In this document: piece by piece, positions 13,909 through 53,960 of the stretch
Layout of the letters: each line of letters opens with the position of its first letter
Numbering within the stretch: the first letter of the stretch is position 1
Assembly: GCA_040954595.2 (NCBI GenBank)
Contig: CM082582.2
Coordinates: forward strand, 2,030,303 to 2,094,302
Source: Balanoglossus misakiensis
Lineage: Eukaryota > Animalia > Hemichordata
Reading direction: 5' to 3'
DNA length: 64,000 nucleotides
Translations under genes and position numbers: made by a program
The notes under the pieces: generated by a model
The model's database searches: none
What the model was told of the DNA's origin: nothing
The model's input: only the letters and a program-made list of their open reading frames with translations

Positions 13909-15255
13909 ACCTAAAGTGTTACCTAAGATAGTGTCCAGCGTCTAGCCGTTATTGAAATTATAGACCCTGCAGCGAGACTGAGCATGATTTGTTGTTGTCA
14001 TGAAACTCATCTCGTACTCCAGTCACTTTCATACAAAACGGCTATGAGTGTCCAATGGTCTTTGTTGAGACTGTTTGACATTGAATGGCATTGACCTCGC
14101 GGGAGGATATCCTTCATGAATACAATGCAGGATATAATTTACATTGGCTAAGGGCTTTGAGGTGCACCAAATTAGTAATTTAGACACACCTTAATTATTA
14201 CATGCCACCCCAAACTTTTTTAAAGCAAGAAACAAAATTGCAGTGCTTTTCCAATGACGCTTTTTAAAATGTAGAATCAGATTGTTTTCTTGTCGCTCAG
14301 GTGTCCAAAATAAATATAGCTGTGATCAATTCCTACTTAAAGCAAACAAAAGTAAATTGAGTTGAATGGGCACGTCCGGCCCATATTTGACCCATTTCAC
14401 ATTTTTTCTTTCTTAGGCTGCATTCACAAACACCTCTGGAGGGGGGGGGGAATTCATCTTTTACCGCTAATTTTCACATGCCCCCCCCCCCTTTCACAAC
14501 CCGAAATATTTTGAAATCCCCCTTCCGAACTGCCAAAATTTTGAAATCCCCCCATTTTCTTTCACAGAGCAAAACTCATAACTCTGCTCAAGCGCTCCCA
14601 TGAAAAGAATTTGAAACTGATGTTTCCCCTCATCAGTGGGTATTAAAACTGAACATTGTTTTTATTTTTTAAGTATTTTGTATGATTATAATTAAAAAAT
14701 ATACAACTTAGCTAAAATGCTTAGATGAGTTAATCAGATTTTCAAAGTCCACCTAAAAGATCATTTAATCTTTCCAGGGTGCGGTTTATGTTGGAGATAG
14801 TATCAGTTAGGCTATTTCTCAGAAAATCAATGAACGATCTGCGGACACCCCGAATAATATGTTACCACAACGCTAGCCAGGAAGCACATGGGACATTTCA
14901 CAATGAGGCAGTGAACACTGGGGGGGACCAGACTGACACGTTAACCAATCAGGGAGCTGTATGGTGAATAAATACATATTAATAAGACCTAACCTACAAG
15001 GTCCTGCATAATGAGGCAGTGAACACTGGAGGACCAGACCTACACATTAACCAATCAGGGAGCTGTAAAGTGAATAATGCATTGTAATAAGACCTAACCT
15101 ACAAGGTCTGGTGAATAATACATAGTAATAAGACCTAACACATAAGGTCCCTCCAATCAGCGAGCCGCAAGTGGACCTTAGAGAAGTGGATAAACCAATC
15201 AGAACATGTAATACGTGTGCATAGGACCTGTAATGTAGGTCATTTTGAAACAGGA

Positions 15256-15661
15256 CTAGTTCACCATGACCAACCACATGACCCAGGAAATCGATCTGCT
15301 CATAACCCACATAACACTTAGTTGGTCTCGCTGTTAACTTTGCCTTTCGTAGTCTGCTCATCAAATCTGTAATTGTCTTGATATGTTCTTCCCATGATGC
15401 AGTGTGGATCAGTATGTGATCGATATAGTTGTCTACGTTCTTCATATCTCTTAACAATCTTCTCATAATTCTGCTAAAAGTCGCAGCACTATTTACAAGT
15501 CCGAAAGGCATTTTGATAAATTGGTATAGCCCATCATGCGTGATAAATGCCGTCAATTGTTTAGAATTATCAGTCAACGGGACTTGCCAATATTCTTTGC
15601 TGAGATCTACTTTAGTGAAATAGTGATCCTTGGATAACTTAGCAAAAAGCAAAAAGCTCAC
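15256..15661 (-). pseudogene. Gypsy reverse transcriptase, C-terminal part (inactive, truncated)
   Basis: Motifs DLSKEYWQVPL, TAF.T..GLYQF..MPFGL.NS.ATF and FLGHVV are present. Catalytic YxDD reads YIDH. A 7-bp duplication (GCAAAAA x2, ~15642-15655) frameshifts it from the upstream ORF, and homology ends after LGHVVGHGEL. Confidence 0.9.
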
Positions 15662-17459
15662 TCAGGTCTGGTGTAGGCTCTGCATCAAACACTGTTATGC
15701 GATTGAGCTTTCTCATGTCAACACAACAACGATTGGACCCATCAGATTTCTTCACCGTTACCAGTGGAACAGCATATGGACTCTCTGAAGGTTCAGCTAC
15801 TCCCATCTTAATCATCGTTTTGACTTCATCTTTCACTGCTTCACGGAGTGCATGAGGGATGGGGTATGGCCTACTGCATACTGGTGTTGGATCCATCAAC
15901 TTGATGTCATGGAAACCCAGGTTGGTCTTACCACGAATATCAGTTAACATATCTTTGTAATTGATCAGCAACCTCCTCACCACTTGCTTCTGTATGTCTG
16001 ACAAGTTGTCACATACATTCACATCTGCAGCAAATTCTTTCTGCTTGAATGCAGGAACCCGCAGTAAGTCATCGTTTACTTTAACCCCTGTGTTCTCTTG
16101 TACTTCTGAAGATTCATAACTCTGCTCATCTATCACAGATACACACACAATCTCAAGAAGTCCAGCTGATACTTCATCTAGCTGATCAGTTCTTCGATAG
16201 TACCTCTTCAACAGGTTGGCATGGAATGTTTTCACCCTATGACCAAAGTCAATCTTGTAATCCATATTGCTCACTTTCTCCACCACTGGAAAAGGACCCT
16301 TCCAGTGCATAAGTAGTTTATTATGGTCAGTAGGTAGTAGCAATAACACCTCGTCACCTTTGTTGAACTTCCTCCATTTGGCCTTTCTATTGTAGTAGGA
16401 CTTGTATTTGCCTTGTGATATCTTCAGTTCTTGTCTTGCTAAATCGCATGCCTTCTTTAATTTCTTTTGAAGATCAAGGATGTATTGATAAGTCGTTTTG
16501 GTTTCTGGTTCACTGATCTCTCCAGTCCATAGTTCTTTCAATATAGCCATTGGACCACGCACACTCCTCCCATAAAGTAACTCAAACGGAGAGAATCCTG
16601 TGCTCGATTGAGGCGTTTCTCTGTAGGCAAATAGTAAAGCATTCAGATAACGATCCCAATATGTTGGACGTTCCTCACACATCTTCCTGAGCATGAGTTT
16701 CAATGTACCATTGAACCGTTCCACTAGACCATTGAATGCTGGGTGGTATGGGGTGGTAGTCATCTGCTTTATAGACAAAAGCCGGCTGACCTCACGCATC
16801 ACATCTGATGTAAATTGAGTTCCTTGATCTGTCAGAATTTCACGTGGACACCCCCCCACTCTTGAGTAGATGTCCAGGAGCGCCTCTGCAACAGTCTTGG
16901 TATCAATGTTAGTCAATGCAACAGCCTCCGGATAGCGTGTTGCATAATCAACAACAGTAAGTATGTACCTATTCTTGCGTTCAGTGCATGGATGAATAGG
17001 GCCAACCAGGTCTACTGCAATACGTAGGAAAGGGATATCTATTAGTGGCATACTTCCAAGTGGTACCTTGGTCACCCGTCCCTTTGGTTGTGTCCGTTGA
17101 CATGAATCACAGGACTGACAGTAACGGGAAACATCTGATGTTAGCCCAGGCCAAACGAAGTTGCTGAGGATCTTGTCTGTGGTCTTGTGAGTTCCGTGGT
17201 GACCACCCAGCACCGATTCATGGGCTAGTCTCATCACCTGGTTACGATACACTCTGGGAACCACCACCTGTAACAGCTTTTCACCAAATTGGACCATTGG
17301 CGAATTGAACTCTCTGTACAGGATCCCATCTTTCATGATGAACTTCAACCTACCTCCATTCCTAGTCACTTTCTCGTCACCCAAAATTGCCTTCTCACGT
17401 AGTTTGTCAAGAGTGGAGTCTTCTTCTTGAGCTTGTTGAAGCTTCCCTGGCATCACCAC
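15639..17459 (-). CDS. Gypsy (Gmr1) pol: integrase (HHCC, rve DDE, GPF) followed by the start of RT
   Basis: Motifs AHES..GGHHG, CQSCDSCQ, AVDLVGP, ILTDQGTQF, NGLVERFN and WKGPF, then PY.IP, PSESPYA.P..V.K.DGS.R.CVD.RKLN (RT N-terminus). Confidence 0.92.
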   Translation of the reverse strand: MVMPGKLQQAQEEDSTLDKLREKAILGDEKVTRNGGRLKFIMKDGILYREFNSPMVQFGEKLLQVVVPRVYRNQVMRLAHESVLGGHHGTHKTTDKILSNFVWPGLTSDVSRYCQSCDSCQRTQPKGRVTKVPLGSMPLIDIPFLRIAVDLVGPIHPCTERKNRYILTVVDYATRYPEAVALTNIDTKTVAEALLDIYSRVGGCPREILTDQGTQFTSDVMREVSRLLSIKQMTTTPYHPAFNGLVERFNGTLKLMLRKMCEERPTYWDRYLNALLFAYRETPQSSTGFSPFELLYGRSVRGPMAILKELWTGEISEPETKTTYQYILDLQKKLKKACDLARQELKISQGKYKSYYNRKAKWRKFNKGDEVLLLLPTDHNKLLMHWKGPFPVVEKVSNMDYKIDFGHRVKTFHANLLKRYYRRTDQLDEVSAGLLEIVCVSVIDEQSYESSEVQENTGVKVNDDLLRVPAFKQKEFAADVNVCDNLSDIQKQVVRRLLINYKDMLTDIRGKTNLGFHDIKLMDPTPVCSRPYPIPHALREAVKDEVKTMIKMGVAEPSESPYAVPLVTVKKSDGSNRCCVDMRKLNRITVFDAEPTPDLSELFAFC

Positions 17460-17471
17460 TTCACCAACAGC

Positions 17472-18654
17472 TTAAGGTACTTTAAGCTCTCTGATTGGTT
17501 TTTGGTTGGCTATCTTCTGGGCTCTGGTCTCCACAGCATTTGCTAAACCTGGTACCTGTCCAACAGTTGTACACAGTCTACATGTCGGCAATGGTTCCTG
17601 CCATGTAGTATCAGGATTCGAAGGGTCAGATACACCATCAATGTTGCCCAGTATTAAATCATACACATGGTTCATCATGCACAGTGCAGTAACATCACCA
17701 ACAAAGTAAGGGGTATCAACTTTTATTGAGGCTACAGGTACTCTTCTAATAGTCCCATCTATCAGAACACACGTCCTGTACTCACCAGTCAGCTGACTAC
17801 TTGACACCAGACTTCTTCGAACTACCACGCTACTACACCCACTATCACGCAAAACGCTAACCAGCTTACCATCGACCAATCCCTTCATTACCGGCATCTT
17901 CTTCACTCCATGGGCACTACAAGCAGCACTCATCACTGGGAGCTTATGACCACATGGTAACACGAACTCCTTATTCAGTGTTGCATCTGTTTTATCTATT
18001 TCCATTGCTACCACCATACATGCATAACCAGTGTCTAGTCCCCTGGGCTGTTGACGGTTGCCCCAATGTGTACATTCTTGTTTAGGTGGATAGTTTCTAT
18101 CTTCTTCAGTTAACAATACCGCCGTCTTATGCATCTTTGGCTTACTTCTACAATCTTTGGCCATATGACCACCTTTACCACATACGAAGCACGTACCTTT
18201 AAAAACATGGGAACCATTGGTTTTGTTATTAAACTTCTTTACTTGATTTGGATATACAGCAGGCTTGGTATTTGCTGTCGGCTGGCTCCTTGGATTATTC
18301 TTGGCATTACTTGGCAGTTTCCACCACCCTCGGGCATCTAAGTATTTTGAGGCAGTAGATACCATCTCTTGGACATTCTCTGGCCGTCGCTCTCTAATGA
18401 ACATTGCCATGTCTCTGGAACATACTCCAATAAACTGCTCTCGAAGTAACAGATCTGTAAGCCCATTGTACGTCTTTGGAGTACCAGCCAGTTCTACCCA
18501 TCTGCCCAAATAGTCACCAATACGGTCCATAAACTTTTGAGCACTTTCATCATAATGTGGCATACACGAACGGAACTTGTCATGAAAACTCTCCTCACTT
18601 AACTGGTAAGCCCTCAATAACTCTGGTTTCAATTCATCATAATTATTTGCAGAC
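17472..18654 (-). CDS. Gypsy gag C-terminal part (SCAN-like capsid region, CCHC knuckle) and aspartic protease
   Basis: Motifs LLRAYQLSEESFHDKFR, LLLREQFI, CFVCGKGGHMAKDC, LRDSG and YDLILGN. The TAA at 17472-17474 is in frame with the pol ORF, so it is probably a nonsense mutation in a single gag-pol. Confidence 0.9.
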
Positions 18655-18660
18655 GCTGCA

Positions 18661-18710
18661 TATGGAAAGCCACAGCTGTCTTAAGTCCATTGTTACCATT
18701 ATACGACGCT
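18661..18710 (+). repeat. Left TIR (50 bp)
   Basis: TATGGAAAGCCACAGCTGTCTTAAGTCCATTGTTACCATTATACGACGCT is the exact reverse complement of 29252-29301. Confidence 0.97.
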
Positions 18711-19555
18711 CATACATCTTTATACAATGTGCATTCATCATTATACGATGCTCATACATCATTATACGCTGTTCGTACATCATTATACGACACTCGTACA
18801 TCATTATACAATGTGCATATATCATTATACGATGGGCATACAACATTATATGCTGGTCGTACATCTTTATACAACGCTCATACATGATTATACGCTGCTT
18901 GTACATCATTATACGACACTCGTACATCATTATACAATGTGCATATATCATTATATGCTGGTCGTACATCATTATACGACGCTCATACATCATTATACGC
19001 TGCTCGTACATCATTATACAACACTCGTACATCATTATACAACACTCGTTCATCATTATACAATGTGCATATATCATTATACGATGTGCATACAACATTA
19101 TATGCTGGTCGTACATCTTTATACAATGTGCATACAACATTATACGCTGGTCGTACTTCATTATACGATGCTCATACATCACTATACAATGTGCGATCAG
19201 TATACGCTGTGCATACATCATAAAATGATGCTCATACATCATTATACAATGTACATACATCATTATACACTGCCCATACATCATTGTACGCTGTGCATAC
19301 AACATTATACGCTGGTCGTACATCATTATACGACGCTCATACATCATTATACAATGTGCATACGCCATCATACGCTGTGCATACATCATTATACGTCGCT
19401 TATTCACCATGATACTATGTGCATACATCATTATGCGCTGTGCATACATTTTTATACGACGCTCATACATCATTATACAATGTTCATACAACATTATATG
19501 CTGGTCGTACATCATTATATGCTGATCATGCACCATGATATGATGCTTGTTCATT
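18697..19555. repeat. Left subterminal 21-bp minisatellite (~40 units)
   Basis: Unit of about CATACATCATTATAC plus a variable 6 nt (GACGCT/AATGTG/GCTGTG/GATGCT). Confidence 0.95.
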
Positions 19556-19629
19556 ACATTACAGCAGAGACACCTTTATTGCAGGCTGTTTGTTAACTGG
19601 TTCCTAACAGTGTATTTACGATAGAGGGC

Positions 19630-21072
19630 ATGTATTCTGATCAGCTGTTTCTATCGGCCATTTTGGATGTCAAGTATTTGATTTGTAAGTCTTCACAATT
19701 TGGCAAAATGGCATCGTCTCCTATGTCCACCATACTGCAGCGACTGAATTTGAGCAACCTTACTGGAGTGTTTGAAAGGGAGAGGATCACTCCAGATATT
19801 GTTGGTAAGCTATCCAGCTGGGAAATGGAGTCCCTTGGAGTGGTTAATCCTGGAGACAGAATGGCTTTGAGCGTGACCTGTACCACCTATGGGATGCAAG
19901 TTCCACCTAAGGTTTGGGAAAGTGGGGGTGCACCACAGTTCATCATTCCAAAAGATATCCTGGAGAACCATTTAGATGAGGATTTTAGCATCTCTGAAAT
20001 AGCATCAATGATAGGAGTTTCACAAAGTACCATTTACAGAAGAATGCGACAATATGGTCTTAGCAAGATGGACTTCACAGATATATCTGAAAGTAACCTA
20101 GATTCATATGTCATCGAATTGGCACGAGAGTTCCCATACTGTGGAGAGAGAATGCTAACTCACATTTTGAAGAATAGAGCAGGCATTAAAGTCCAGCGGA
20201 TGCGCCTCCGTGACAGTCTTCACAGAATTGACTCAGATGGTGTAGATGCAAGACGAAGGGGTCGTTTACATCGCAGAATATACAATGTTAAAGGACCAAA
20301 TCACTTGTGGCACATTGACACAAACCACAAGTTGATTAGGTGGCATTTTGTGGTAATTGGCGGTATTGATGGTTTTAGCCGTCTGCCAGTCATGCTTCAA
20401 TGTCGGGACAACAACAAGTCAGCTACTCTGTTACAGTGTTTCAAAAGTGCTGTAGGCGAATATGGCGTTCCAAGTAGGGTGCGCTCCGATCAGGGCATGG
20501 AGAATGTTGGCATAGCAGACTACATGATATTAAGCCGTGGGCCTAATAGGGGAAGCATGATCACAGGGAAAAGCGTACACAATCAAAGAATTGAGAGGCT
20601 GTGGAAAGATGTTTTTGAAGGTGTTCTTGCGTTATATTACCAGTTATTTTATTTTATGGAGGAGAAGGGTATTTTAGATATACTGAAGCCAAGCCATATA
20701 GCTGCACTTCACCATGTGTATTTATCTAGAATAAATCATAAATTAAAAATATGGAATAACGCATGGGCCAATCACAGAATGAGGACGACAAGAACATCAC
20801 CTCTGCGCTTATGGGTTTCCGGTCAGTTGCAGAACCCAGTTGGGATTGAGTTAGCTGCTGATGAAGTCACAGAATATGGCGTTACTGGCGTGATTCGTGA
20901 GGATGCTGATGAAGCAGATTCGAGACCTGTGATCGATGCACCATCATTTGAGTTAAATGAAGCCTGTACGGAAGAACTATATCGCACCATTCCACAAACA
21001 TGGACATCCAATAACTATGGTATTGAGAGGTACCTAGATGCACTATCCATAATTAATCATCACCATGATTAA
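19630..21072 (+). CDS. DDE transposase (IS3EU-like) with N-terminal SAM-like domain and HTH; intact, single exon; likely start ATG 19708 (454 aa)
   Basis: SAM-like region at 19723-19881 and [29 protein letters not shown]. The catalytic triad lies in [19 protein letters not shown] and NQRIERLW. There are no stops or frameshifts. Confidence 0.92.
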
Positions 21073-21501
21073 TTCTGTTCGTTCTAGACTTAGAGCGGCA
21101 ATAGCTGTGATTTTGAACATTTTTTGGCACTAATAACACAGGAAATGTTTTATTAAAAATAAAAATCAGAGAAAACAGATCGATAGTTCAGTACAATTAT
21201 TGCTGCTTTAACATATGGAGCACTTAGAAAACAAACAGATACAATGTATCATTTGACAATGCATGTTTATTCAAAGAAAACATACACAACTTCTCGACAA
21301 CAATGAGTTTTACTAGCCAAATCCTCAAGGTCAAAACGAAATGACAACAACACCGGCGCCGCCGATAACACCAAGTCACATGAATGAAAAAAACAGCTGA
21401 TCACTGGAAAGCAGGTCATGAACGGGAAATTTTAGATTTCTATCGTTTTCACTGCTTATTTCGGCGATTCCTAACGTAAACAGTCGAAGCATGTATGATA
21501 A

Positions 21502-21587
21502 AGGGGTTATTACACGAATTTTGGTCGATAATGCGACGCATTCTCGAATACGACGCGTTATCGACCAAAATTCATGTAATAACCCCT
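21502..21587. repeat. 86-bp hairpin between the convergent genes
   Basis: 42-bp arms AGGGGTTATTACACGAATTTTGGTCGATAATGCGACGCATTC and GAATACGACGCGTTATCGACCAAAATTCATGTAATAACCCCT, with 4 mismatches and a 2-nt spacer. Confidence 0.9.
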
Positions 21588-21746
21588 AATTATAAAAATG
21601 AAACAGTAATTGTTAACGTTTGTCAGTTGGAACTTGTAACTTATACATGTAGTATAAAGCAACTAAACATATACCCCCAGTACTCAAATGGTTGCCATAT
21701 TATGTATCCAATGCATAGAAGGAAATCAAACCATACAGGCACCATG

Positions 21747-22006
21747 TCATACTCTACCAAAATGTCTAGTGGTAAATGCATAATCATACATCTCATGCAT
21801 CCTATCTACTGACAATAGGTCATGCTCAAGAGTGGGTCTCGGTAGCTTCAATAAATTGATGCAAGTATCTGACGTTGGAATAAAAGATATTTCATATGGA
21901 ATAAATTCAATACTTGGTGCAGTTCCAAACCCTAACACTGGTTCTTGCTCTGTTCCCGTTGTAAAGACAAGTACATCTTCAAGTGTGACTGATCCTCTTC
22001 TATTAC
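21747..22006 (-). CDS. HECT gene exon 8 (C-lobe, catalytic Cys at 21861-21863)
   Basis: TLEDVLVFTTG.EQEPVLGF...PTSDTCINLLKLP...FGRV*, with the conserved Phe at -4. Confidence 0.9.
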
Positions 22007-25000
22007 CTTTTAGAGAAAAATATGCATTGTTGTCATGAATCATGCAGTTGACCATACATTGCCATAAGGGACCGTTCAGTTTTTACGGCTGGGGGGGGGG
22101 GAGGCAAGTTTGTGTCACCGGTTTTCAAAATCAGGCCGACCCCCCCTTCACCCAGGACCAAAAATTGATGACCCCCCCTTTGACAGACCCAAAAATATGA
22201 TGACCCCCCCCCCCCCCACGGCCAAAACATTCGCCGTCCTGATCCTATGTACACTGTATGCAATAAAGGGAATGAGGCTCCTCACACCTCAATTCTAAAG
22301 TATTATTGAAGTATATAGTATATCGTTGCAACAAAGAAATCTATGAACAAATTAAAATGAGAAGTCACTACAATAGTTGCTAGAATTGGTAAAACAAGAA
22401 AAGTGGCGGCGGTGGGCGTGGGAGGGGGTGTCCCCCTCCCACATAAGAAAATTTTGTAAAATTAGGTGCTCAAAGTTGCATTTTAATGAACTCAAAAACA
22501 AATTAACTCAATGTTAGGGAGGACAAATTTTAATTTTGCCACTCCATTCAAAGTAAGCATCGGGGGTGGGGTGGCAATTTAGACTCTGCCCTGGTACACT
22601 AGACAAACCAGCAAAAAATGAAATGTGGCGGAGAATGAAGGGGGTGGGTGGGTTAGAAAATTTTGTAAAAAAAGGGGCGCGAAACTGCAATTTTGTGGAC
22701 TCAAATGCAAAAGTTCGGTGGCAAAAGTATGTGACCCCCCTAAACGTTTAAAAAAAACAGATGACCCCCCCCCCCTTTTGGACTTCAAAATTTGAGTGAC
22801 CCCCCCCCCCCCCTGGATTTTGCCCCCCCCCCCCCCCCCCGGCCGTAAAAACTGAACGGTCCCTAAACCATGAAAGTTATATTTTAACCCATTGATATAG
22901 CCAAGACATTACTTACTTGCAACTTCACGAAGATATTTGTTGAATACTGCATATACTTGGCCTTCATATCTTCTATCATTAGAACCATTCTCACTGAACG
23001 ATGGTGTTAGCATTGCCTTTAGCCTTGGCAAAGTGAGTTTTGAGGATGTATTTTCACGCAGAAGATGCTGGAATGTAGGCAGCTCTATACACATCTGTAT
23101 TAAGTAATATATAGTGTGTAATATATGTGTATTAATACACTTCTCTTGTAGACACACAAAAAACATGACAATGGAAGCAAACCATATACAATGTAATAAA
23201 GTTCATGTTTATGTTCTCAGTCTGACAATAATATAGAGAGACTTCAATATGAACACTGATTACAATCACCCCACAAAAGCACTAGAGATTGTATTTAGTA
23301 CTCCCATTGTGATATACATGTATTGTGACAGTATACTACTACCGGTAGTAGTGTTGTTTAAAATTCCAGTACTATAATGTTTTTTTAATGAATTCTGACC
23401 AAGACATGAATGGAAAAGTTGGCTAAGTAATATCAGATACATGTAGATAAGGTATGCAATACCTCAGTTTGTAGTTTCAACACTTTGTTAAAAGGTGATT
23501 TTTGACCGTGTATGAAGTGAGTTATTTACATCTGTCCTATATCTTATATGGACCAAACCAAAATTTTACCAAAATACAAGAAATTATGGTGGAAATCAGT
23601 TTATGAATAAGCCAATTACTACCAGTTAAAATGCATGGACTGATGCTAAAAAGTGATTGTTCTATACATTACATATGTTAACAGTGTACATGTTCATAGA
23701 ATCCTACCCTATATTTATTAAACTATGAAACTATTCCATTCTTTTTAATATCCAAATTACCCTAATTAAAATAAACCAATGTGCATAAAAAATAATCAAA
23801 TCTTGTATTTGTTGCATTTGTCTTTTTTTTATATTCTAAGCAAGATTTTCGTACTGACAGACATCCATGACATAAGACATGGTGGCTATTAACCACTAAA
23901 GCTGTTATAACTCAATAATCTATAAATAGTTGTTTAAACTCACCTTATGTATCCCTAATTTGTTTAGGCCTTCCTTTAATTTCTCCAGACATGGATTTAA
24001 TGACACTAAGCCTGTAGAGAACAGCTCTGATAAGACATCGGCACCTAGGAATTGAGGCAATACTCCATTCTGCAATATGCTCACAGCTATAAGAATCAAT
24101 AATTTAAGTTACATTTTGAAGAGCTCCTGTGTGAGTTGCGAGAAGTTCAGTCTAACGAGTCATATAACATGACCCCATGTGTATGTCTTGATTGGCATTC
24201 GTGAACTATTTAACATGCAATTTGTCCACACAATACTCGTAGATAAGCATTAGTCATGCATATTCCATGTTTGAATGGGTTTTGGCATTGGCATGAATCA
24301 ACTTCGAACCAAAGAAAGTTTAGAAAGAACTCCCGTGTTCTGAGGGAATCGCAATAGTGAAAGCAATTTGATCCACAGTATTAAAATTTACAATACAAAC
24401 AGAAAACCCTACACAACCCCTACATGTGCATAATCCCAGAATACCAATAAGTATACCAGCTAACAGCTGAAAATTGGCTAATTTAGGTTTGTCTTATTGA
24501 AATTTCTAGAGCTATCAGTGGAGCAGCTAATAAATTGCAATTTATTATGCAAATTAGATAATTAATATGCACTGGTGTCAACCAAAAAGTATAATCAGAT
24601 CTTCGCATTTTCCAAATGCATCTGTGTATCAAGTTTCATTGGAATCTGTTGAACGGTGCATGAGATATCAATGGAACAGCTAAGAATTGGCTAAGAATGT
24701 AGTAAAAGTAAAAAAGGATGTCCATATGAACATGCCAGAACAAAAAATATCTTACCTAAGATCTGACCAACAGTCACGTAATCATCACAGAGGTGGTCTT
24801 TTAAGCCATTGTCAAAATATTTCTCTTTCAATATCCTTAACATTGAATTCAAAAATTCTTTACGTGGACCGCCATAGTCCTTTGCTCTCTGTGTGAAATT
24901 AATAATATAAATATTGATGTTAGTATATGGTAATAGATTAATCATTTTAAGGCAATAAAAATCCATTCAAACAAATGTTTTTCTTTATTTCAAATTACCT

Positions 25001-28000
25001 CTCCATAAAAGTCTACTTCAAGCGTTGTTCGTAGTTGCCGTATAGACAAGGCAGACATTTCATCAAAACCAGTTGATGAAAGGCACAGTCTGTCAACGCT
25101 AATCACAGTTGTATCGCCTTCGTCACACTGATCCATTGCTTTGATTTCCAGAGCTCTACCAATGATCATTTTAGCTTGATAGTACCGGAGAATCTCCACA
25201 GGGTTTTCTATACTATGCTCCTTACAGTAATCAACAGTTTCTATAACAATAGCTTCCACTTTCCTCTTTTCTGCATCATCTCCCACTTCATCTTCTTCAT
25301 CGACCACCTACAATGGGCAAAACAAGATTAATAATTTAACATAAGTTAGGAAATGTCTATATACCATATTTGGTCCAACAAAGATCAATAATGATATACA
25401 ATCTGTCAATGTATATAAAAATGACTGCCCATATATTTTCCTTCTTTTAAACTGGACTGATTAGGGAGTTTGTGTACATTTTCTGTACCTTTTTGGCAGA
25501 CATCCGTGCATATTAATTTTCACCTAAAATTGCTTTTTTGAGACCACAAAAATATGTAATGGCACATGTAACAAAATTAACAAAAAACAACATTTTCAAC
25601 TTGATTTTTTTACAATTTACCAGTTAGTGGCCCAAAAAAAGGAAACTCAAGGAAAACAAATAATTAAACACTTACAAAATTGTCTCGCTCCATTTCCACA
25701 TTTATATCAGAATTGGTCTGATTTTCATCAGATACAGCAGTAGCTGTAATATAATCATTCCTGAAAGAAAGAAGATGGTCCTCTTTTCAGTGTCATATTC
25801 TCTATGTTATTATTAAATTATATGTAGAAACGTCCATAAGATTATATGTCACAGAAACAGACGACTAGAACTTGGGTGCTTCCATTGTGGCAAGAATTTT
25901 AAAAGAAATTCATTTGTGCCCACATATACAGATCTGGAATTTCCGTCTGTGAACCAAAATTCACGCACCAATCGCCATTACCAAGCACACCTGATTCATA
26001 CGGGACAACGAAGCGCCCCAAAACGCCTCACAACTTGTACAATGGCCCCTTTTTGAACTTTATGCGAGGAAGGCGCAGCCATCTTGAATCTCGCTCGCAC
26101 ACTAGCTATACAGTGCATTATGGGTAAAAATCATGTTTATCAAGAAAGGATAAAAATAGGAAAATCTACCCCCCTTCAACCTATTTAATTTTACTGTACT
26201 ACACACTATATTTTAGACTACACTAACAAATGAGTATAATCCCAGTTATAATGCAAAAAGTTAGTTCAGTGAATTAGCATGAACTGAAATTGCTCAGGTG
26301 TTGCAATGATATTGCACCATCTGGACAATGTTGATTGTCATTATATTTACAACTGTTCTTGTATTTACATTTTCTGATGGAATAAATTTCATTCATCATA
26401 TGCAAATTAAATGGCAACATAACCAAATCAAATAAGATTATGTATTTTATTATGATGCCATGGGAACATGCACAGAAAGTGAAAGGCCAGAAACTGGCTC
26501 AAGTCAGCAGGTCACAGGAATTTGAAATTGTTATTGTTGAAAGAAATATACAAGCCAAAACAAAATTATGCTGGAGGTTCCTGACTTCTGCCTGACTTCA
26601 GGAGCATAGCTGTATCAATGTGCCAAATGTAATTGAAAATGGTATTAATACTTACACATGTACCGGTACATGATCAGCAACCTCACTCATAGATTCAACA
26701 GCTGCCTATAAAATGAAATAATATTGGAAGTAAGCTACATATCATAAACTATGTATGTACAGTGTATTATCACAAGCACCAAAACTGACCAAAATGTTCA
26801 CCAAAACTAGATGCTAGCATATACATGCATGTATCCCCCAACCCATTGCTCATTTGCATATATCAGAATATGAATCTAGAGCAGATGCTTTTGGGTAAAT
26901 ATTGGTAAATACTGACTTACAAAGACAACATTAATTCTAACATGTTGGTTATGTTCATCCCTACAATACAAACATGAATGAACACACCAAAATAGTTTGA
27001 GAGAATGAGTTGTTTTCACCAAAAATACACGAGTATTCCAAATTTTCTTTTCTCATTGCTCACAGTTGCAATTTCTTTCTTGATGATAACGAGTTATCAA
27101 TCGTTTTTTCACAAAATGTTCATAGTCCCCCCCCTCCACCCACCCAGATTTTCAAATTAGAAAAAAACATACATAAATAAATATTAAACATGGGGTTGGG
27201 CTTATTGTTATTGTTAAGTTTGGTGTTTATATGCATGCAATGTAAAACCCCCGTATTCTTGGGTTGCACGACGCAATGTTACCATGGATAAGATTCGAAT
27301 TAGCGGCCATTTTTGCAAAATATACTGACAACACCAGTAAGATCGAACGTTATTAGGCGCAGTGTCTGCCAGTGACGTCACGTGCAAGCCAAGAATTTCT
27401 AAACTACTGTTATATGTTCACACTTACCCCTACATCTTCATCTGAATCAGATAAACATTTACATGTCCACATGTGATCACGTAATTCCCGTACATCAATA
27501 AGTTGATTGCACCCTTGGCACTTTTCTGTAACACTTGACGAAATTCCAATGGATGATATTGGCTTTGTTGACAGGTTTCGTTGTATAGGCCTCAAATAAA
27601 TCTTAGACTGTGAGCCTAAATTAGCCTTCAGATCAGGTATTGACCAGTCACAGCTTATTACAGACAGATTACGTGAGTTAGGTTGACACTGCAGTAGTTC
27701 AAATCCACCGGCATCTTTCAATTGAGAATATCCAGCCATATCATTGTCATCATCTTTCGCAGATGACAAGGTATCCAAGAACTCCCCCTGAGAACACGAA
27801 GCATCAAATTTGATCTTTTTTGGCCCTAACCCAGCACGATGTAAAACTTGACGTTCGGCAGATGTTGGAACTTTAAAGGCATGCCTGTCCGACAAACAAA
27901 CAAAATTTCCTGTCCATGTACGCTTCGGTTGATTGACCGTGCCACTCCGGCGCGTGCCTGTCCTAGGTCTACATCCCCTTGGTGCCATTCTCGGGTTAAA

Positions 28001-28255
28001 AAGCACACTTCTTTCTTCTCGAACAGCGCTGGCCATACTGTCATTCCTGGTAGTAGACTCACCGGTTCCGATCGTACTTATACTTGTAGCCGTTTTACAC
28101 AGGTCACGGATGCGAACGCGATCCCCCAATGTTGAAACTCCCAGTCTAGTTAATTCACCATCAGTCATGGAAAGAACCGTTGAAGGATCCACTCGTTCGT
28201 CTAGGAAACGCTGTAAGAGCGCTGGAAGTTCGAGCTTAGTCAAGATACTTTCCAT
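21747..28255 (-). CDS. Transposon-borne 8-exon gene, 661 aa: SAM-like, Ubl-like, C2HC zinc finger, acidic linker, HECT E3 ubiquitin ligase (G2E3-like family)
   Basis: Exons 28255-27428, 26705-26656, 25760-25676, 25307-24999, 24888-24756, 24086-23944, 23094-22917 and 22006-21747. All introns are GT-AG and phases 0,2,0,0,1,0,1 are compatible, giving 1986 nt with no internal stop. HECT motifs are VDFYGE|RAKDYGGPRKEF, LKEGLNKLG, VLVFTTG...P..GF and PTSDTCINLLKLP, with terminal FGRV. Confidence 0.85.
22068..22863. mobile_element. PIF/Harbinger-type MITE in HECT intron 7
   Basis: TIR GGGACCGTTCAGTTTTTACGGC / GCCGTAAAAACTGAACGGTCCC followed by G/C tracts. TAA flanks both ends (22065-22067 and 22864-22866). 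Confidence 0.85.
22917..23094 (-). CDS. HECT gene exon 7
   Basis: MCIELPTFQHLL...PSFSENGSNDRRYE...YLREVA, with TACAG acceptor and GTAAGT donor. Confidence 0.85.
23944..24086 (-). CDS. HECT gene exon 6 (not in the ORF track)
   Basis: AVSILQNGVLPQFLGADVLSELFSTGLVSLNPCLEKLKEGLNKLGIHK, with TTATAG acceptor and GTGAG donor. Confidence 0.85.
24756..24888 (-). CDS. HECT gene exon 5
   Basis: RAKDYGGPRKEFL...VGQIL, with CACAG acceptor and GTAAG donor. Confidence 0.88.
24999..25307 (-). CDS. HECT gene exon 4
   Basis: VVDEEDE...LEVDFYGE, with TTGTAG acceptor and GTAAT donor. Confidence 0.85.
25676..25760 (-). CDS. HECT gene exon 3 (85 nt)
   Basis: TTTCTTTCAG acceptor and GTAAG donor; phase 2 to 0, complementing exon 2. 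Confidence 0.65.
26656..26705 (-). CDS. HECT gene exon 2 (50 nt)
   Basis: TTTCATTTTATAG acceptor and GTAAG donor; phase 0 to 2. Confidence 0.65.
27428..28255 (-). CDS. HECT gene exon 1 (SAM-like, Ubl-like, C2HC finger)
   Basis: ATG at 28255 with an in-frame stop upstream. Motifs MESILTKLEL...LGVSTLGDRVRI, FVCL...AGLG.KKI.F...GGFELL...IYLRPIQ and CQGC-x11-H-x3-C. Donor GGG|GTAAGT. Confidence 0.85.
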
Positions 28256-28417
28256 TCTGACTGGGTCAAACACTCAGATCATAAACAAATATGGCGCATG
28301 TTACGTATTTAAGTATGTTGCGCCCTCTTTGACAGAATTGCGGTTAGGCATAGCATATCATAATGACATGTCCGCATAGTATAAAGCCAAACGCGCGCCG
28401 TATGTTGAACGGGCATA

Positions 28418-29265
28418 GTATCATGGTGAATGAGCGACGTATAATGATGTATGCACAGCGTATAATGATGTATGCACATTGTATAAAGGTGTATGAGCGT
28501 CGTATAATGATGTATGGGCAATGTATAATGATTTATTCACAGCGTATAATGATGTATGCACATTGTATAAAGGCGAATGAGCATCGTATAATGATGTATG
28601 GGCAATGTATAATGATGTATTCACAGCGTATAATGATGTATGCACATTGTATAAAGGTGTATGAGCGTCGTATAATGATGTATGGGCAATGTATAATGAT
28701 TTATTCACAGCGTATAATGATGTATGCACATTGTATAAAGGCGAATGAGCGTCGTATAATGATGTATGCACATTGTATAAAGGTGTATGAGCGTCGTATA
28801 ATGATGTATGGGCAATGTATAATGATGTATTCACAGCGTATAATGATGTATGCACATTGTATAAAGGTGTATGAGCGTCGTATAATGATGTATGGGCAAT
28901 GTATAATGATGTATTCACAGCGTATAATGATGTATGCACATTGTATAAAGGCGAATGAGCGTCGTATAATGATGTATGGGCAATGTATAATGATGTATTC
29001 ACAGCGTATAATGATGTATGCACATTGTATAAAGGCGAATGAGCATCGTATAATGATGTATGCACATTGTATAAAGGTGTATGAGCGTCGTATAATGATG
29101 TATGGGCAATGTATAATGATTTATTCACAGCGTATAATGATGTATGCACATTGTATAAAGGTGTATGAGCGTCGTATAATGATGTATGGGCAATGTATAA
29201 TGATGTATGCACATTGTATAAATATGTATGAGCTTCGTATAATGATGTATAAGCGTCGTATAATG
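28418..29265. repeat. Right subterminal 21-bp minisatellite (~40 units), inverted relative to the left
   Basis: Unit of about GTATAATGATGTATG plus 6 nt, with a recurring 84-bp four-unit pattern. Confidence 0.95.
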
Positions 29266-29301
29266 GTAACAATGGACTTAAGACAGCTGTGGCTTTCCAT
29301 A
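29252..29301 (-). repeat. Right TIR (50 bp)
   Basis: Exact reverse complement of 18661-18710. Confidence 0.97.
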
Positions 29302-29730
29302 GCTGCAGGCATTTGGTTGTATGTGGATACATCCTTACCTTGTAACAATATGCACTGAGATTCACCCCCAGTCATCTTTTCCCACTTCTGAGCAGTGGCG
29401 TAGCGCTGAAAACGTTGAAGGTACGCATCCATATCATCAACATCCTCACGAAAACCCTGTAGTCTCGGAGCACGCGCTTTGGCCAAATTATTTTCAGTAA
29501 CCTGCTGTTCTGTATTTTCCCCTTTCAATTTTAATTCTTGTAAGTGAATTTGCATTTTCAGTATCTCTCTCTCATGTTCCTCGCGCCGCCTATTATCTTC
29601 TCTCTGCTCCTCTCTCTCAGTAGCCCTAAGATCCCTCTGTCTAATTTGTTCCTCTCTAACATAATCTTTTAAAGCAGTCCCTTCCAACCCAAATTTTCTC
29701 CCTATCTTAGATATTCTTTCTGCATATATG
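29302..29730 (-). CDS. Gypsy (Gmr1) gag N-terminal part
   Basis: KIGRKFGLEGTALKDYV, a coiled coil, then PRLQGFREDVDDMDAYLQRFQRYA. It joins in frame to 18654 across the TSD (YNQMPAA|SANNYDELKPELL). No clear ATG was found. Confidence 0.85.
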
Positions 29731-30006
29731 CTTTGCTGTATCGCGATTTACAACCCCCAGTTTGACAACCCCTAGCAGTACAGGGCATTCAGCACAAGTC
29801 AACACAGCCAAACGCACGACGCAAACCAACACGGCCCATATTATATAGCAGGAAACCACAAGCGCACATACAGTAACAGTACCAGCCTACAGACCCAGCA
29901 CCGTCTTCACAATTTGCAGAATCTCTACCTATCAAAACCATGGTCTCCACTATATGGCAACAATTTATGATAGTATACAAACAAATGCACAACAAAACGA
30001 TAAAAC

Positions 30007-38029: not shown

Positions 38030-41000
38030 CCATCATTAGCAATGTCAAATTACAGTGCTTTTGGCCACATATCAACCTGGGGATTTACAGACAACTTAAA
38101 ATCCCCCTCAGCATGCATTTAATCCCCATGTCAAAGTGCAGAGCTTGCATCACCATCTACCCCTTACAGTACTTATGGCCATGTATTAACCTAGGGATTT
38201 ACAGTCAACATTAAATACCCATGCATATATTAACCTGGGAATTTACATTCAACATTAAATACCCATGCACATGCATTAAATACGTATGCCAAAGCGCAGA
38301 GCTTGGATCACCATCTACACTGATGCATCATTAGGCTTGCTACGCCATTTCCCCTAATGCAAAGAATCACATTCAATGTCACCATTGTATTAGCTATGTC
38401 AAATTTCAGTGCTTTTGGACTTGTATTAACCCAGGGATTTTCAGTCAACTTTTAATCCCCATATGCATTTAATACCCATGTCAAAGTGAAGTGTTTGCAT
38501 CACTATCTACCGGGATGCATCATCAAGCTTGCATCGCCATTTACCCTGATGCAAAGAATCAGATTCAGTGTCACAATTTCATTAGCAATGTAAAATAAAA
38601 TTGCTTTTTGCCAAGTATTAACCTGGGGATTTACAGACAACTTTAAATACCCATGTATATACATTTAGTACCTATATCAAAATGCTTAGCTTGCATCACC
38701 ATCTACTCAGATGGATCATTAGGCTTGCTACGCCATTTCCCATAATGCAAAGGATCAGATTCAATGTCACCCTTACATTAGCAATTTTAAATTACAGTGC
38801 TTTTGGAGATGTATTAACCTGGGAATTTACATTCAACATTAAATACCCAAGCACATGCATTAAATACCTATGTCAAAATGCATAGCTTGCATCACCGTCT
38901 ACTCCATTGCATCATTAAGCTTGCTTTGCCATTTGCCCTAATGCGGAGAATTACATTCAATGTCAACATCGCATTAGCAATGTCAAATTACAGTGCTTTT
39001 GGACGCGTATTAATCCAGGGATTTGTAATCAACTTGAAATCCCCATATGCATTTAATGCCCATGTCAAAGTGAAGTGTTTGCATCACTATCTACCATGAT
39101 GCATCATCAAGCTTGCATCGCCATTTACCCTGATGCAAAGAATCGGATTCAATGTCATCGTTGCATTAGCAATGTCAAATAAAATTGCTTTTGGCTACGT
39201 ATTAACCTAGGGATTTACAATCAATTTTAAATCCCCATATGCATTATATTCCAAGTCAATGTGAAGGGCTTGAAACACCATCTACCCTGATGCATCTTCA
39301 AGCTTGCTTCACCATTTACCCATATTCAATGTAACCTTTGCATTAGTAATTTTAAATTACAGCGCTTTTAGCCATGTATTAACCTCGGGATTTAGAGTCA
39401 ACTGTAAATATCAATGCGTATGCATTAAATACCCATGTCATAGTGCAGTGTTTCCATCACTGTTGACCCCAATACATCATCAAGCATGCTTCACAATATG
39501 CCCTGATGCAAAGAATCAGATTCAGTGTCACCATTTCATTAGCAATGTCAAATTATAGAGCTTATGGCCATGTATTAACCTGGGGATTTACAGACAACTT
39601 TAAATACCCATGTATATACATTTAGTACCTATGTCAAAATGCTTAGCTTGCATCACCATCTACTCAGATGGATCATTAGGCTTGCTACGCCATTTCCCAT
39701 AATGCAAAGAATCAGATTCAATGTCACCCTTACATTAGCAATTTTAAATTACAGTGCTTTTGGAGATGTATTAACCTGGGAATTTACATTCAACATTAAA
39801 TACCCATGCACATGCATTAAATACGTATGCCAAAGCGCAGAGCTTGGATCACCATCTACACTGATGCATCATTAGGCTTGCTACGCCATTTCCCCTAATG
39901 CAAAGAATCACATTCAATGTCACCATTGTATTAGCTATGTCAAATTTCAGTGCTTTTGGACTTGTATTAACCCAGGGATTTTCAGTCAACTTTTAATCCC
40001 CATATGCATTTAATACCCATGTCAAAATGAAGTGTTTGCATCACTATCTACCGGGATGCATCATCAAGCTTGCATCGCCATTTACCCTGATGCAAAGAAT
40101 CAGATTCAGTGTCACCATTTCATTAGCAATGTAAAATAAAATTGCTTTTTGCCAAGTATTAACCTGGGGATTTACAGACAACTTTAAATACCCATGTATA
40201 TACATTTAGTACCTATATCAAAATGCTTAGCTTGCATCACCATCTACTCAGATGGATCATTAGGCTTGCTACGCCATTTCCCATAATGCAAAGGATCAGA
40301 TTCAATGTCACCCTTACATTAGCAATTTTAAATTACAGTGCTTTTGGAGATGTATTAACCTGGGAATTTACATTCAACATTAAATACCCAAGCACATGCA
40401 TTAAATACCTATGTCAAAATGCATAGCTTGCATCACCGTCTACTCCATTGCATCATTAAGCTTGCTTTGCCATTTGCCCTAACGCGGAGAATTACATTCA
40501 ATGTCAACATCGCATTAGCAATGTCAAATTACAGTGCTTTTGGACGCGTATTAATCCAGGGATTTGTAATCAACTTGAAATCCCCATATGCATTTAATGC
40601 CCATGTCAAAGTGAAGTGTTTGCATTACTATCTACCATGATGCATCATCAAGCTTGCATCGCCATTTACCCTGATGCAAAGAATCGGATTCAATGTCATC
40701 GTTGCATTAGCAATGTCAAATAAAATTGCTTTTGGCCACGTATTAACCTAGGGATTTACAATCAATTTTAAATCCCCATATGCATTATATTCCAAGTCAA
40801 TGTGAAGGGCTTGAAACACCATCTACCCTGATGCATCTTCAAGCTTGCTTCACCATTTACCCATATTCAATGTAACCTTTGCATTAGTAATTTTACATGG
40901 CTAAAAGCGCTGTAATTTAAAATTACTAATGCAAAGGTTACATTGAATATGGGTAAATGGTGAAGCAAGCTTGAAGATGCATCAGGGTAGCTGGTGTTTC

Positions 41001-53000: not shown

Positions 53001-53960
53001 CAAAATGCATAGCTTGCATCACCATCTAGTCCAATGCATCATTAAGCTTGCTTAGCCATTTCCCCTAATGCAAAGAATTACATTCAATGTCACCATTTCA
53101 TTAGCAATGTCAAATTACATTGCTTTTGGACACGTATTAACCCAGGGATTTGTAATCAACTTGAAATCCCCATATCCATTTAAACCCATGTCAAAGTGAA
53201 CTGTTTGCATCACTATCTACCGTGATGCATCATCAAGCCTGCATCGCCATTTACCCTGAAGCATAGGATCAGATTCAATGTCACCATTGCATTAGCAATG
53301 TCAAATAAAATTGCTTTTGGCCACGTATTAACCTGAGGATTTACAGTCAACTTCAAATCCCCATATGCGTTATATTCCAATGTGAATGTGAAGGGCTTGT
53401 AACACCATCTGTCCTGATGCATCATTAAGCTTGCTTCGCCATTTACCCTGATGCATAGAATCAGATTCAATGTCACTGTTGCATTAGCAATGTCAAATAA
53501 AAGTTCTTTTGGCCATGTCTTAACCTAGGGATTTATAATCATCTTTAAATCCCCATATGCATTATATTCAAAAGTCAATGTGAAGGGCTTGAAACACCAT
53601 CTATCCTGATGCATCATCACGTTTGCTTCACCATTTACCCATATTCAATGTCACCCTTGCATTAGTAATTTAAAATTACAGTGGTTTTGGCCATGTATTA
53701 ACCTCGGGATTTAGAGTCAACTTTAGATATCAATGTGCATGCATTAAATACCCATGTCAAAGTGAAGTGTTTGCCTCACTATCTACCGGGCTGCATCATC
53801 AAGCTTGCATCACAATTTACCCTGATGCAAAGAATCAGATTCAATGTCATCGCTGCATTAGCAATGTCAAATAAAATTGCTTTTGGACACGTATTAACCC
53901 AGGGATTTTCAGTCAACTTTTAGTATCCCTGTATGCATTTTAAACCCCGGTGTCAAAGTT
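38030..53960. repeat. ~195-bp monomer satellite with higher-order repeats (957, 1541 and 2304 bp)
   Basis: Monomer spacing is 196 (38682 to 38878). Matching variant ORFs recur at 42743/45047/47351 and 43523/45827/48131 (2304), 38682/40223 (1541), and 38682/39639 and 51517/52474 (957). Confidence 0.95.
40894..42066 (-). repeat. Inverted segment within the 195-bp satellite
   Basis: Monomers are reverse-complemented between TTTTA|CATGGC (40895) and TTGCTAAT|TTTAAA (42066). Confidence 0.93.

Follow-up and report, generated by a model that had tools for sequence, protein, structure and literature searches.

Reciprocal SAM domain faces in the transposase and HECT-type ligase of a two-gene IS3EU transposon from Balanoglossus misakiensis

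A TRANSPOSON WITH ITS OWN LIGASE GENE

Two-gene DNA transposons usually divide DNA binding from catalysis. The element considered here may follow a different logic. It lies within 64,000 nucleotides of the hemichordate Balanoglossus misakiensis (contig CM082582.2, positions 2,030,303 to 2,094,302; this whole stretch is the window, and positions below are counted from its first letter). One of its genes encodes a transposase and the other a HECT-type ubiquitin ligase, and both proteins begin with a sterile alpha motif (SAM) domain. Does the element address its own ligase to its own transposase? A preliminary description proposed this because the two N-termini resemble each other. The proposal is kept here, but on other grounds: the two genes share a lineage and their SAM domains carry reciprocal binding faces, whereas the resemblance itself turned out to say little about pairing.

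AN INTACT IS3EU ELEMENT

The stretch 18661..29301 is an intact 10.6 kb cut-and-paste transposon of the IS3EU/GingerRoot type with two genes. Its features, apart from the genes, are as follows.

18655..18660, no strand: left target-site duplication GCTGCA (end comparison and empty-site joint)
18661..18710, + strand: left terminal inverted repeat, beginning with TATGG; its 50 nt match the right end exactly
18697..19547, + strand: left subterminal array, about 41 copies of a 21-bp unit (matches the right array in inverted orientation)
21502..21587, no strand: palindromic repeat of 86 bp between both genes (loose contig ends at 21489 and 21593)
22068..22863, no strand: nested non-autonomous element in ligase intron 7 (inverted ends, TAA flanking both sides)
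28418..29265, - strand: right subterminal array, in multiples of the 21-bp unit (repeat analysis)
29252..29301, - strand: right terminal inverted repeat, identical to the left end over the first 50 nt
29302..29307, no strand: right target-site duplication GCTGCA (end comparison and empty-site joint)

Contigs from two runs of one sample carry the empty site. They join 18654 to 29302, with six letters that fit either side. The ends, the duplication and this joint put transposase and ligase inside one element, as had been claimed. The terminal inverted repeats are of the TA..TA form (TAYGG..CCRTA), the target-site duplication is 6 bp (GCTGCA) and the IS3/integrase-type DDE core has no HHCC and places its first Asp, residue 199, within 100-300 residues of the start. 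Published descriptions of IS3EU/GingerRoot elements (Kojima and Bao, 2023, PMC10045372; Cerbin et al., 2019, PMC6839031) give the same ends, duplication and core. Set by eye beside the published supplement rows, the core motifs were close to those of IS3EU-1_SK, the nearest core. None of 68 candidate stretches from viral contigs (0/68) proved to be a relative.

The subterminal arrays are candidate transposase binding sites. Long open reading frames run across them, but these were rejected as genes because they are repeat artefacts. The 86-bp palindromic repeat is probably a small nested element outside the two-gene system, and the insertion in intron 7 is, we presume from its features, Harbinger/Tourist-like.

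TWO PROTEINS THAT BEGIN WITH SAM DOMAINS

19723..21072, + strand: transposase open reading frame, 449 aa, single exon, with SAM, HTH and DDE core (D199/D256/E291)
19723..19881, + strand: transposase SAM domain (family profile, AlphaFold2)

Translation could alternatively begin at an in-frame ATG at 19708. The transposase core matches rva_4 in Pfam (E 5.6e-77), its fold matches IstA and intasomes, and the catalytic residues are kept among relatives (D199 and D256 in 89/89, E291 in 88/89). The N-terminus scores 22.7 bits against Pfam SAM_1, just below the cut-off of 23 (E 1.3e-4). AlphaFold2 places helices at residues 2-7, 11-19, 24-27, 32-37 and 43-53 (pLDDT 82-93), and the family profile retrieves the tankyrase-1 SAM with an E of 3e-4. 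A full SAM is present in 106 of 121 close transposases and has invariant residues across 89 sequences at 50-64% identity. Eight of ten listed coding differences between this copy and sequenced runs are synonymous.

The ligase gene is convergent to the transposase gene. An open eight-exon GT-AG model encodes 661 aa, and its layout agrees with annotated full-length proteins such as P0127.

28097..28255, - strand: ligase SAM domain (Pfam, profile, fold comparison)
27428..28255, - strand: exon 1, 276 aa; SAM (1-55), conserved helix and basic linker, ubiquitin-like domain (about 109-227), C2HC-type zinc finger (243-266)
26656..26705, - strand: exon 2, acidic linker (placed by its splice sites alone)
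25676..25760, - strand: exon 3, acidic linker (placed by its splice sites alone)
24999..25307, - strand: exon 4, end of the acidic linker and start of HECT
24756..24888, - strand: exon 5, HECT N-lobe with DYGGPRKEF motif
23944..24086, - strand: exon 6, HECT N-lobe
22917..23094, - strand: exon 7, end of HECT N-lobe and hinge
21747..22006, - strand: exon 8, HECT C-lobe, PTSDTC with Cys624 (codon 21863-21861), C-terminus HFGRV

We know of no host HECT ligase with a SAM-Ubl-C2HC zinc finger N-terminus. The ligase N-terminus reaches 24.5 bits against SAM_1 (cut-off 23), and its AlphaFold2 model matches the tankyrase-1 SAM with Z 9.4 and rmsd 2.2 over 59 aligned residues. For the ligase SAM the ESM Atlas returned generic SAM clusters only, all below 0.9. 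Both models have the same five-helix pattern over residues 2-53, and the early identification of both N-termini as SAM folds holds.

LIKENESS IS NOT THE EVIDENCE FOR PAIRING

The gapless alignment of 19723-19881 with 28255-28097 gives 19/53 identities (0.358), exactly as first reported; extended to 55 residues it gives 20/55, with an E of 1e-6 for a single comparison. However, any transposase-ligase cross pair of SAMs is 32% identical on average. The pair from this copy sits at the 73rd percentile of 106 x 95 cross pairs and ranks 48 of 95, and five cognate pairs fall between the 45th and 73rd percentiles. By sequence, then, cognate SAMs are not each other's best matches, and the human ANKS6 SAM is identical to the ligase SAM at 19/47 positions. 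The preliminary description also saw a shared SAM pattern ending in 'GDR'. Both domains are SAMs, but G44 with R/K46 occurs in 1/106 transposase SAMs vs 90/95 ligase SAMs, a count that makes 'GDR' a peculiarity of this transposase copy. Pairwise identity and 'GDR' were both rejected as signs of pairing, given the ordinary percentile, the ANKS6 match and the single occurrence.

Nor is a common origin within the element established, because host SAMs score equally high on the ligase SAM profile (Bicc1 41.9, ANKS6 41.1 and tankyrase-1 38.4 bits) as transposase SAMs do (median 34.5, this copy 39.1).

RECIPROCAL BINDING FACES

What if the relevant signal lies in the surfaces rather than in overall similarity? 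SAM interface positions were taken from the TNKS2 SAM structure (PMC4980433), the register was set by alignment and faces were counted on sets made non-redundant at 70% identity (65 transposase and 64 ligase SAMs). A number of the mid-loop residues also contribute in part to the domain core. The mid-loop face (D/E25 and hydrophobic 26, corresponding to TNKS2 D902 and V903) is present in 61/65 transposase SAMs vs 10/64 ligase SAMs, and the end-helix face (large hydrophobic 43 and G44, TNKS2 Y920 and G921) in 63/64 ligase SAMs vs 0/65 transposase SAMs; because the sequences are related, neither these counts nor those from the trees below are independent events. Mean entropy over nine mid-loop positions is 0.79 bits in transposase SAMs vs 1.86 in ligase SAMs, with divergence alike in the two sets (mean internal identity 49% and 46%). 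The ligase family keeps its end-helix face as T-I-G-D-R-x-R while the mid-loop face varies, its region still being net acidic (mean -2.3).

A precedent exists in the ANKS6 SAM, which, according to PMC4105859, has a mid-loop face only, no usable end-helix face, and binds ANKS3. The reciprocal faces have the pattern of a one-way end-helix/mid-loop heterodimer of this type, and they therefore favour heterotypic SAM binding. That the two SAMs bind each other is, on sequence grounds, slightly the better bet. Alternatively, the transposase mid-loop face could pack on the transposase itself.

ONE LINEAGE, WITH AN EXCEPTION

If the two SAMs work together, do their genes also stay together? In a tree of the transposase core built without the SAM, 33 SAM transposases and 31 with a helical N-terminus lie on opposite sides of one branch (100/100), the SAM rows having been gathered by similarity to this copy. 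The HECT C-lobes beside six SAM transposases (this copy, L003, L004, L006, L010 and L018) group with full-length ligases, five of six carrying a SAM, against 11 others (99/98). In addition, the SAM-transposase and SAM-ligase clusters have longest contigs of identical size in common (27569, 468268 and 30226). SAM-bearing transposase and SAM-bearing ligase genes travel jointly in one lineage.

Beside helical transposases, at eight loci of seven families and on either strand, no SAM scored above 8.9 bits; in the control for this search held-out split SAMs scored at least 31 bits, 30/30 at each of four cuts. Of the ligase-like database proteins, 97 of 192 lack a SAM; since gene calling has visibly truncated many of them at the N-terminal end, this was not taken as loss. 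One distant family does not fit (L041, L042, L047 and L052). Its ligase strand holds an intron-split SAM with the end-helix motif intact (55 bits), yet its transposase begins with a helical domain and has no SAM. No right element end was found within these loci. The ligase end-helix face may have another partner, because this family keeps the face without a transposase SAM. The early expectation that the two SAMs co-occur is thus borne out for one lineage, but they are not always gained and lost together. This family, the seven families with neither SAM and a HECT about 90 residues short speak against obligate coupling.

Perhaps there is no contact between the two SAMs at all. The ligase end-helix face might engage a SAM protein of the host, such as tankyrase, Bicc1/ANKS or Polycomb, or else the ligase SAM itself, and the transposase SAM might serve another purpose, for instance contact with a host SAM or stabilisation of the transposase oligomer. 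The discordant family, the host SAMs that resemble the ligase SAM as much as the transposase SAM does and the cognate pairs without excess similarity are what this account would expect, and the acidic ligase mid-loop leaves self-association possible. However, it would then be coincidence that two genes of the same element have reciprocally lost SAM faces, and that the SAM-bearing genes share a lineage. We regard it as a serious but less probable alternative. On the preferred reading, this two-gene IS3EU transposon docks its own HECT-type ligase on its own transposase as a one-way pair, the ligase SAM contributing its end-helix face and the transposase SAM its mid-loop face; we put the probability of this reading at roughly 0.5.

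A SHORTENED HECT DOMAIN

Even if the SAMs pair, does the docked protein act as a ligase? Like canonical HECT ligases (AREL1, E6AP, Rsp5/NEDD4) it has the GGP-x-x-EF N-lobe motif and the C-lobe catalytic Cys motif. The latter aligns to AREL1 and E6AP and is present in 8/8 proteins holding both motifs searched. Unlike them, the transposon HECT is about 85-95 residues shorter between both motifs. A canonical HECT N-lobe has about 250 residues and includes the E2 docking surface. Here the distance from the GGP motif to the Cys is 188-191 residues in 8/8 full-length relatives measured, and from the GGP motif to the C-lobe the sequence falls 83-93 residues short of E6AP and AREL1, making E2 recruitment and ligase activity uncertain. 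The exon 8 C-lobe scores 29 bits against Pfam HECT (cut-off 23.9), while exons 4-7 taken alone gave no Pfam HECT match.

With the SAMs paired, the protein might be a non-canonical module that acts as a scaffold or ubiquitin-binding helper of the transpososome, or that depends on an outside adaptor for E2 recruitment, and the transposase would not be marked for destruction. The shortening is common to all full-length relatives measured, it falls in the N-lobe, where the E2 docking surface sits according to PMC6063350, and only the C-lobe part matches Pfam. On the other hand, corals, molluscs and this copy all retain the Cys motif and a C-terminal aromatic residue, in keeping with selection on catalysis, and the zinc finger or Ubl could supply the E2 contact. 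This version is unlikely.

Least probable of all is a captured passenger HECT gene that has no present function and whose SAM likeness arose by chance copying of one gene start across the inverted ends, a step that the nearly mirror-spaced SAM coding starts (1062 and 1046 bp from the ends) would ease: it is already largely refuted by conservation, namely by convergent transposase and HECT genes recurring in 16/80 metagenome loci (the remainder being mostly short contigs), the invariant SAM residues and the mostly synonymous differences.

HOW THE PAIR MIGHT HAVE ARISEN AND ACT

Under the docking model, the transposase SAM would have replaced an older helical N-terminal domain once, and would probably have been copied from a ligase-type SAM. 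It would then have lost its end-helix face and with it the ability to polymerise, leaving a docking site or cap. The docked ligase would act at transposase bound on the subterminal repeats. Its likeliest substrate would be the transposase itself, by turnover or by removal from the strand-transfer product, an option that takes about half of the odds left; proteins of host chromatin or repair would come next.

A broader version is less likely than not. It envisages a two-part machine in an animal DNA transposon lineage: a split, one-way SAM plug and socket derived from a polymerising SAM would direct the element's ligase to the element's transposase, while other IS3EU lineages would dock by the helical N-terminal module. 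Ubiquitination at the transpososome would then be programmed into transposition, the enzyme being a compact HECT without part of the usual E2-binding region.

If docking is real, the second gene of a DNA transposon is a ligase docked on the transposase, and self-regulation or transpososome disassembly would be the work of the element's own enzyme. The reciprocal faces name exact residues, so the claim is reducible to two 60-residue domains. The uncharacterised SAM-HECT genes annotated in multiple copies in corals, molluscs and hemichordates would then be explained as transposon parts, and the element would offer a naturally compact HECT together with a SAM pair that may be orthogonal.

RELATION TO KNOWN SYSTEMS

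A close parallel in architecture is the TET-carrying IS3EU of rust fungi (Kojima, 2025, PMC12730594). These elements have TAYGG..CCRTA ends, a 6-bp duplication and a second enzyme gene opposite the transposase, as here. However, that enzyme is an alpha-kinase; what they carry is a kinase plus a TET/JBP dioxygenase rather than a ligase, and the text consulted mentions no docking domain common to both proteins. Close parallels in binding are the ANKS3-ANKS6 heterodimer and the tankyrase/Bicc1 polymers (PMC4105859 and PMC4980433), whose SAMs are of the same subclass by profile and fold. In ANKS3-ANKS6, too, the end-helix face is usable in one SAM and the other has the mid-loop face only. Unlike the transposon proteins, these are host scaffolds and their binding was measured, whereas that of the transposon pair is predicted.

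The terms HECT, ubiquitin and sterile alpha motif do not occur in the searched portions of PMC10045372, PMC6839031 and their supplements. The literature searched, mainly at abstract level, yielded no HECT or SAM in IS3EU elements and no such SAM pairing, although Repbase Reports might describe them. Some Repbase IS3EU entries bear second-protein names (_2p).

The element and its insertion site

The element that encodes the two SAM domains spans 18661-29301 (10,641 bp) and belongs to an already known superfamily, IS3EU/GingerRoot. The features of that superfamily given in two descriptions (PMC10045372, PMC12730594) are those found here, and the core motifs of IS3EU-1_SK (PMC10045372 supplement) closely match the window transposase when compared by eye. 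Both extremities carry TATGG, the terminal 50 nt are identical between left and right ends, a 6-bp target-site duplication (GCTGCA) flanks the element on either side, and arrays of a 21-bp unit occupy approximately 850 bp inward of each end. The empty site is itself represented by contigs of two runs of one sample, in which 18654 is joined directly to 29302; this bears out both the ends and the 6-bp duplication. The insertion point is the gag-like frame of a Gypsy-type retrotransposon, which is thereby interrupted.

Features of the element
plus strand: transposase gene, single exon, 449 aa (SAM, helix-turn-helix, DDE core, in that order)
minus strand: ligase-like gene, eight GT-AG exons giving an open 661-aa frame
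22068-22863: nested repeat of about 800 bp in ligase intron 7, flanked by TAA and with inverted ends
21502-21587: nested 86-bp palindrome between the two genes

The transposase DDE core matches rva_4 (E 5.6e-77; catalytic D199, D256 and E291), and the best fold matches of the predicted model (pLDDT 84.8) are IstA and retroviral intasomes. Ligase exons 2 and 3 were modelled from splice sites alone; the other six align to annotated full-length proteins of a soft coral and two molluscs. Of the 10 listed coding differences that set the runs' contigs apart from the window, eight are synonymous. Exon 1 encodes a predicted SAM fold (Z 9.4 against tankyrase-1), a ubiquitin-like (Ubl) domain with middling scores (Z 7.6 and 7.2 against the TBK1 ULD, 6.9 against Ufm1) and a C2HC-type zinc finger. 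The protein ends in a HECT domain that has the Cys motif. Named relatives of the two proteins come from corals, bivalves and one hemichordate.

Two real SAM domains of ordinary similarity

The preliminary description had proposed that the two N-termini are homologous SAMs, on the basis of their identity and a shared GDR. Profile matches and predicted models bear out that both are SAM domains, and the ungapped alignment is real (20/55 identical). However, the similarity is ordinary for this SAM class, lying at the 73rd percentile of cross pairs. Identity between 106 transposase and 95 ligase SAMs averages 31.6 +/- 5.4%, and the window ligase SAM ranks only 48 of 95 for the window transposase SAM. 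Human ANKS6 is identical to the window ligase SAM at 19/47 positions, counted from the alignment. With the ligase SAM profile, host SAMs score 41.9 (Bicc1), 41.1 (ANKS6) and 38.4 bits (tankyrase-1), while the median for transposase SAMs is 34.5 bits; the transposase SAM profile gives ligase SAMs a median of 24.5 bits, the window copy 18.9 and tankyrase-1 23.1.

The shared GDR is no trait of the transposase family. The window transposase SAM is atypical at 19849-19872, where it reads P43-G44-D45-R46, and it is alone in this among the 106 transposase SAMs (G plus R in 1/106). It also has Ser at position 50, against Arg in 88 of 89 sequences. What does link the two families is Cys53 (103/106 transposase and 75/95 ligase SAMs), which is missing from the five solved SAMs compared.

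Co-occurrence among relatives

A metagenome search with the transposase alignment returned 80 loci, and in 16 of them a HECT gene is matched downstream of the transposase, on the other strand; most loci without a match are short contigs, and a match upstream of the transposase (L065) was left uncounted. The transposases either begin with a SAM or have a helical, amphipathic N-terminus (helical-type). In an unrooted core-only tree of a chosen subset, with SAM rows gathered by similarity to the window copy, one long branch (support 100/100) parts 33 SAM from 31 helical rows. In a HECT C-lobe tree (89 columns; six near-duplicate or short rows excluded), the C-lobes found beside SAM transposases, from the window and five loci (L003, L004, L006, L010, L018), fall together with six full-length ligases and apart from 11 C-lobes of helical-type loci (support 99/98). 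Five of the six have a SAM; the sixth, database protein P0211, starts later and none was detected. The contigs of the five loci stop before the ligase start, so that we infer their ligase SAM. Three exact matches in longest-contig size between SAM-transposase and SAM-ligase clusters, one involving two clusters of each, suggest that the two lie on the same contigs.

No SAM above 8.9 bits was found in eight loci, partly decayed copies, of seven helical-type families. Both ends and target duplications are present in five of the eight, and held-out SAMs cut in two, as a control, score at least 31 bits in every case. In L054, a partly decayed copy, the Ubl exon was also not found. The exception is the L041 family, in which a helical-type transposase is accompanied, in four copies, by a ligase-type SAM split by an intron. 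Its two parts lie on the ligase strand, would be spliced to the HECT, and score 55 bits once joined. No right end of this element lies within the loci examined. Therefore, the two SAMs are concordant in the lineage of the window element and in seven sister families, but discordant in one distant family.

L041:7994-21128 (also L033, L038, L039, L042, L047, L052) represents a larger IS3EU family of >13 kb with divergent Ubl and HECT and the intron-split SAM. Outside the SAM lineage, plus-strand ORF starts show that the transposases begin with a domain of ~80 residues that is helical, amphipathic and acidic, and the first exons of the minus-strand gene in L034, L046, L049, L058, L067 and L080 show that the ligases have a short amphipathic helix ahead of the Ubl. 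These could possibly be an alternative docking pair.

Reciprocal binding faces and a possible mechanism

SAM domains contact one another by an end-helix face on a mid-loop face. Interface residues were taken from tankyrase TNKS2 (PMC4980433) and carried over by alignment register, using sets non-redundant at 70%. Transposase SAMs hold a mid-loop pocket (E20, I22, D25, I26, L30, E/D34, L38), with D/E25 plus hydrophobic 26 in 61/65 against 10/64 ligase SAMs, where residues 25 and 26 are variable. Conversely, the end-helix key, hydrophobic 43 plus G44, occurs in 63/64 ligase SAMs (motif T-I-G-D-R-x-R) and in 0/65 transposase SAMs, which usually have N-R-S. In sequence terms, the faces of the two families are mirror images. 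According to PMC4105859, ANKS6 is monomeric and its end-helix face has no large hydrophobic residue, its mid-loop face binds the ANKS3 end-helix face, and polymer capping is expected. Transposase SAMs have this same pattern, a conserved mid-loop face without the end-helix key.

Reciprocal faces predict that the two SAMs bind. This is a prediction only, because the faces were mapped by sequence, the entropy contrast over all seven end-helix positions is small (2.10 versus 1.68), and in the L041 family the ligase-type SAM retains this end-helix motif although the transposase offers no SAM partner. Perhaps, then, each SAM has its own independent host partner. This is a tentative alternative, and, L041 aside, the mirror-image faces of the two families argue against it.

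The most likely scenario is that the ligase SAM plugs into the transposase SAM. Docking would deliver the HECT to transposase molecules sitting on the 21-bp arrays. Of the candidate substrates the transposase itself would be the simplest, for turnover or for clearing from the joined product; alternatively, factors of host chromatin or DNA repair close to the site of insertion might be modified. The original idea of a ligase addressed to its own transposase is partly supported and has become more precise. It now draws on the SAM folds, their concordance within the lineage and the reciprocal faces, no longer on identity or the GDR, and the discordant L041 family counts against it. The transposase SAM probably took the place of an older helical module in a single event, and was perhaps copied from the ligase start. 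SAM coding starts at mirror positions, 1062 and 1046 bp from the element ends. In the papers searched on this element, the genes it carries and HECTs of the G2E3 type, neither a HECT nor a SAM is mentioned for IS3EU elements.

The window HECT (21747-25307, minus strand) is 83-93 residues shorter from the GGP motif to the C-lobe than E6AP and AREL1. The HECT N-lobe bears the E2 docking surface (PMC6063350). Going by the size of the E2-binding subdomain, the absent part may be that subdomain. The shortened N-lobe region (about 85-95 residues) is common to all full-length ligase relatives measured, and the spacing from GGP to Cys motif is 188-191 residues in 8/8 proteins with both motifs. That the SAMs pair but the HECT works as a non-canonical module is an unlikely reading, and that the SAM likeness is a functionless copy is very improbable.

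Other repeats

The retrotransposon hosting the insertion covers approximately 15000-18660 and 29302-29750 (minus strand), with ORFs resembling gag, protease, integrase and reverse transcriptase; the integrase precedes the reverse transcriptase, and several frames are broken. At L072:4216-10187, a rearranged element end, the IS3EU left end has both a direct duplicate and a perfect inverted one of 962 bp, and these lie around two direct repeats of 1.3 kb. L049:13924-15701 (minus strand) has ORFs like those of a tyrosine-recombinase retroelement, nested in an IS3EU copy, which we take to resemble DIRS-type RNase H and recombinase. Finally, a satellite of 192-196-bp units occupies approximately 38170-55000 of the window; it shows higher-order periods, and an internal stretch at about 40891-42066 is inverted.
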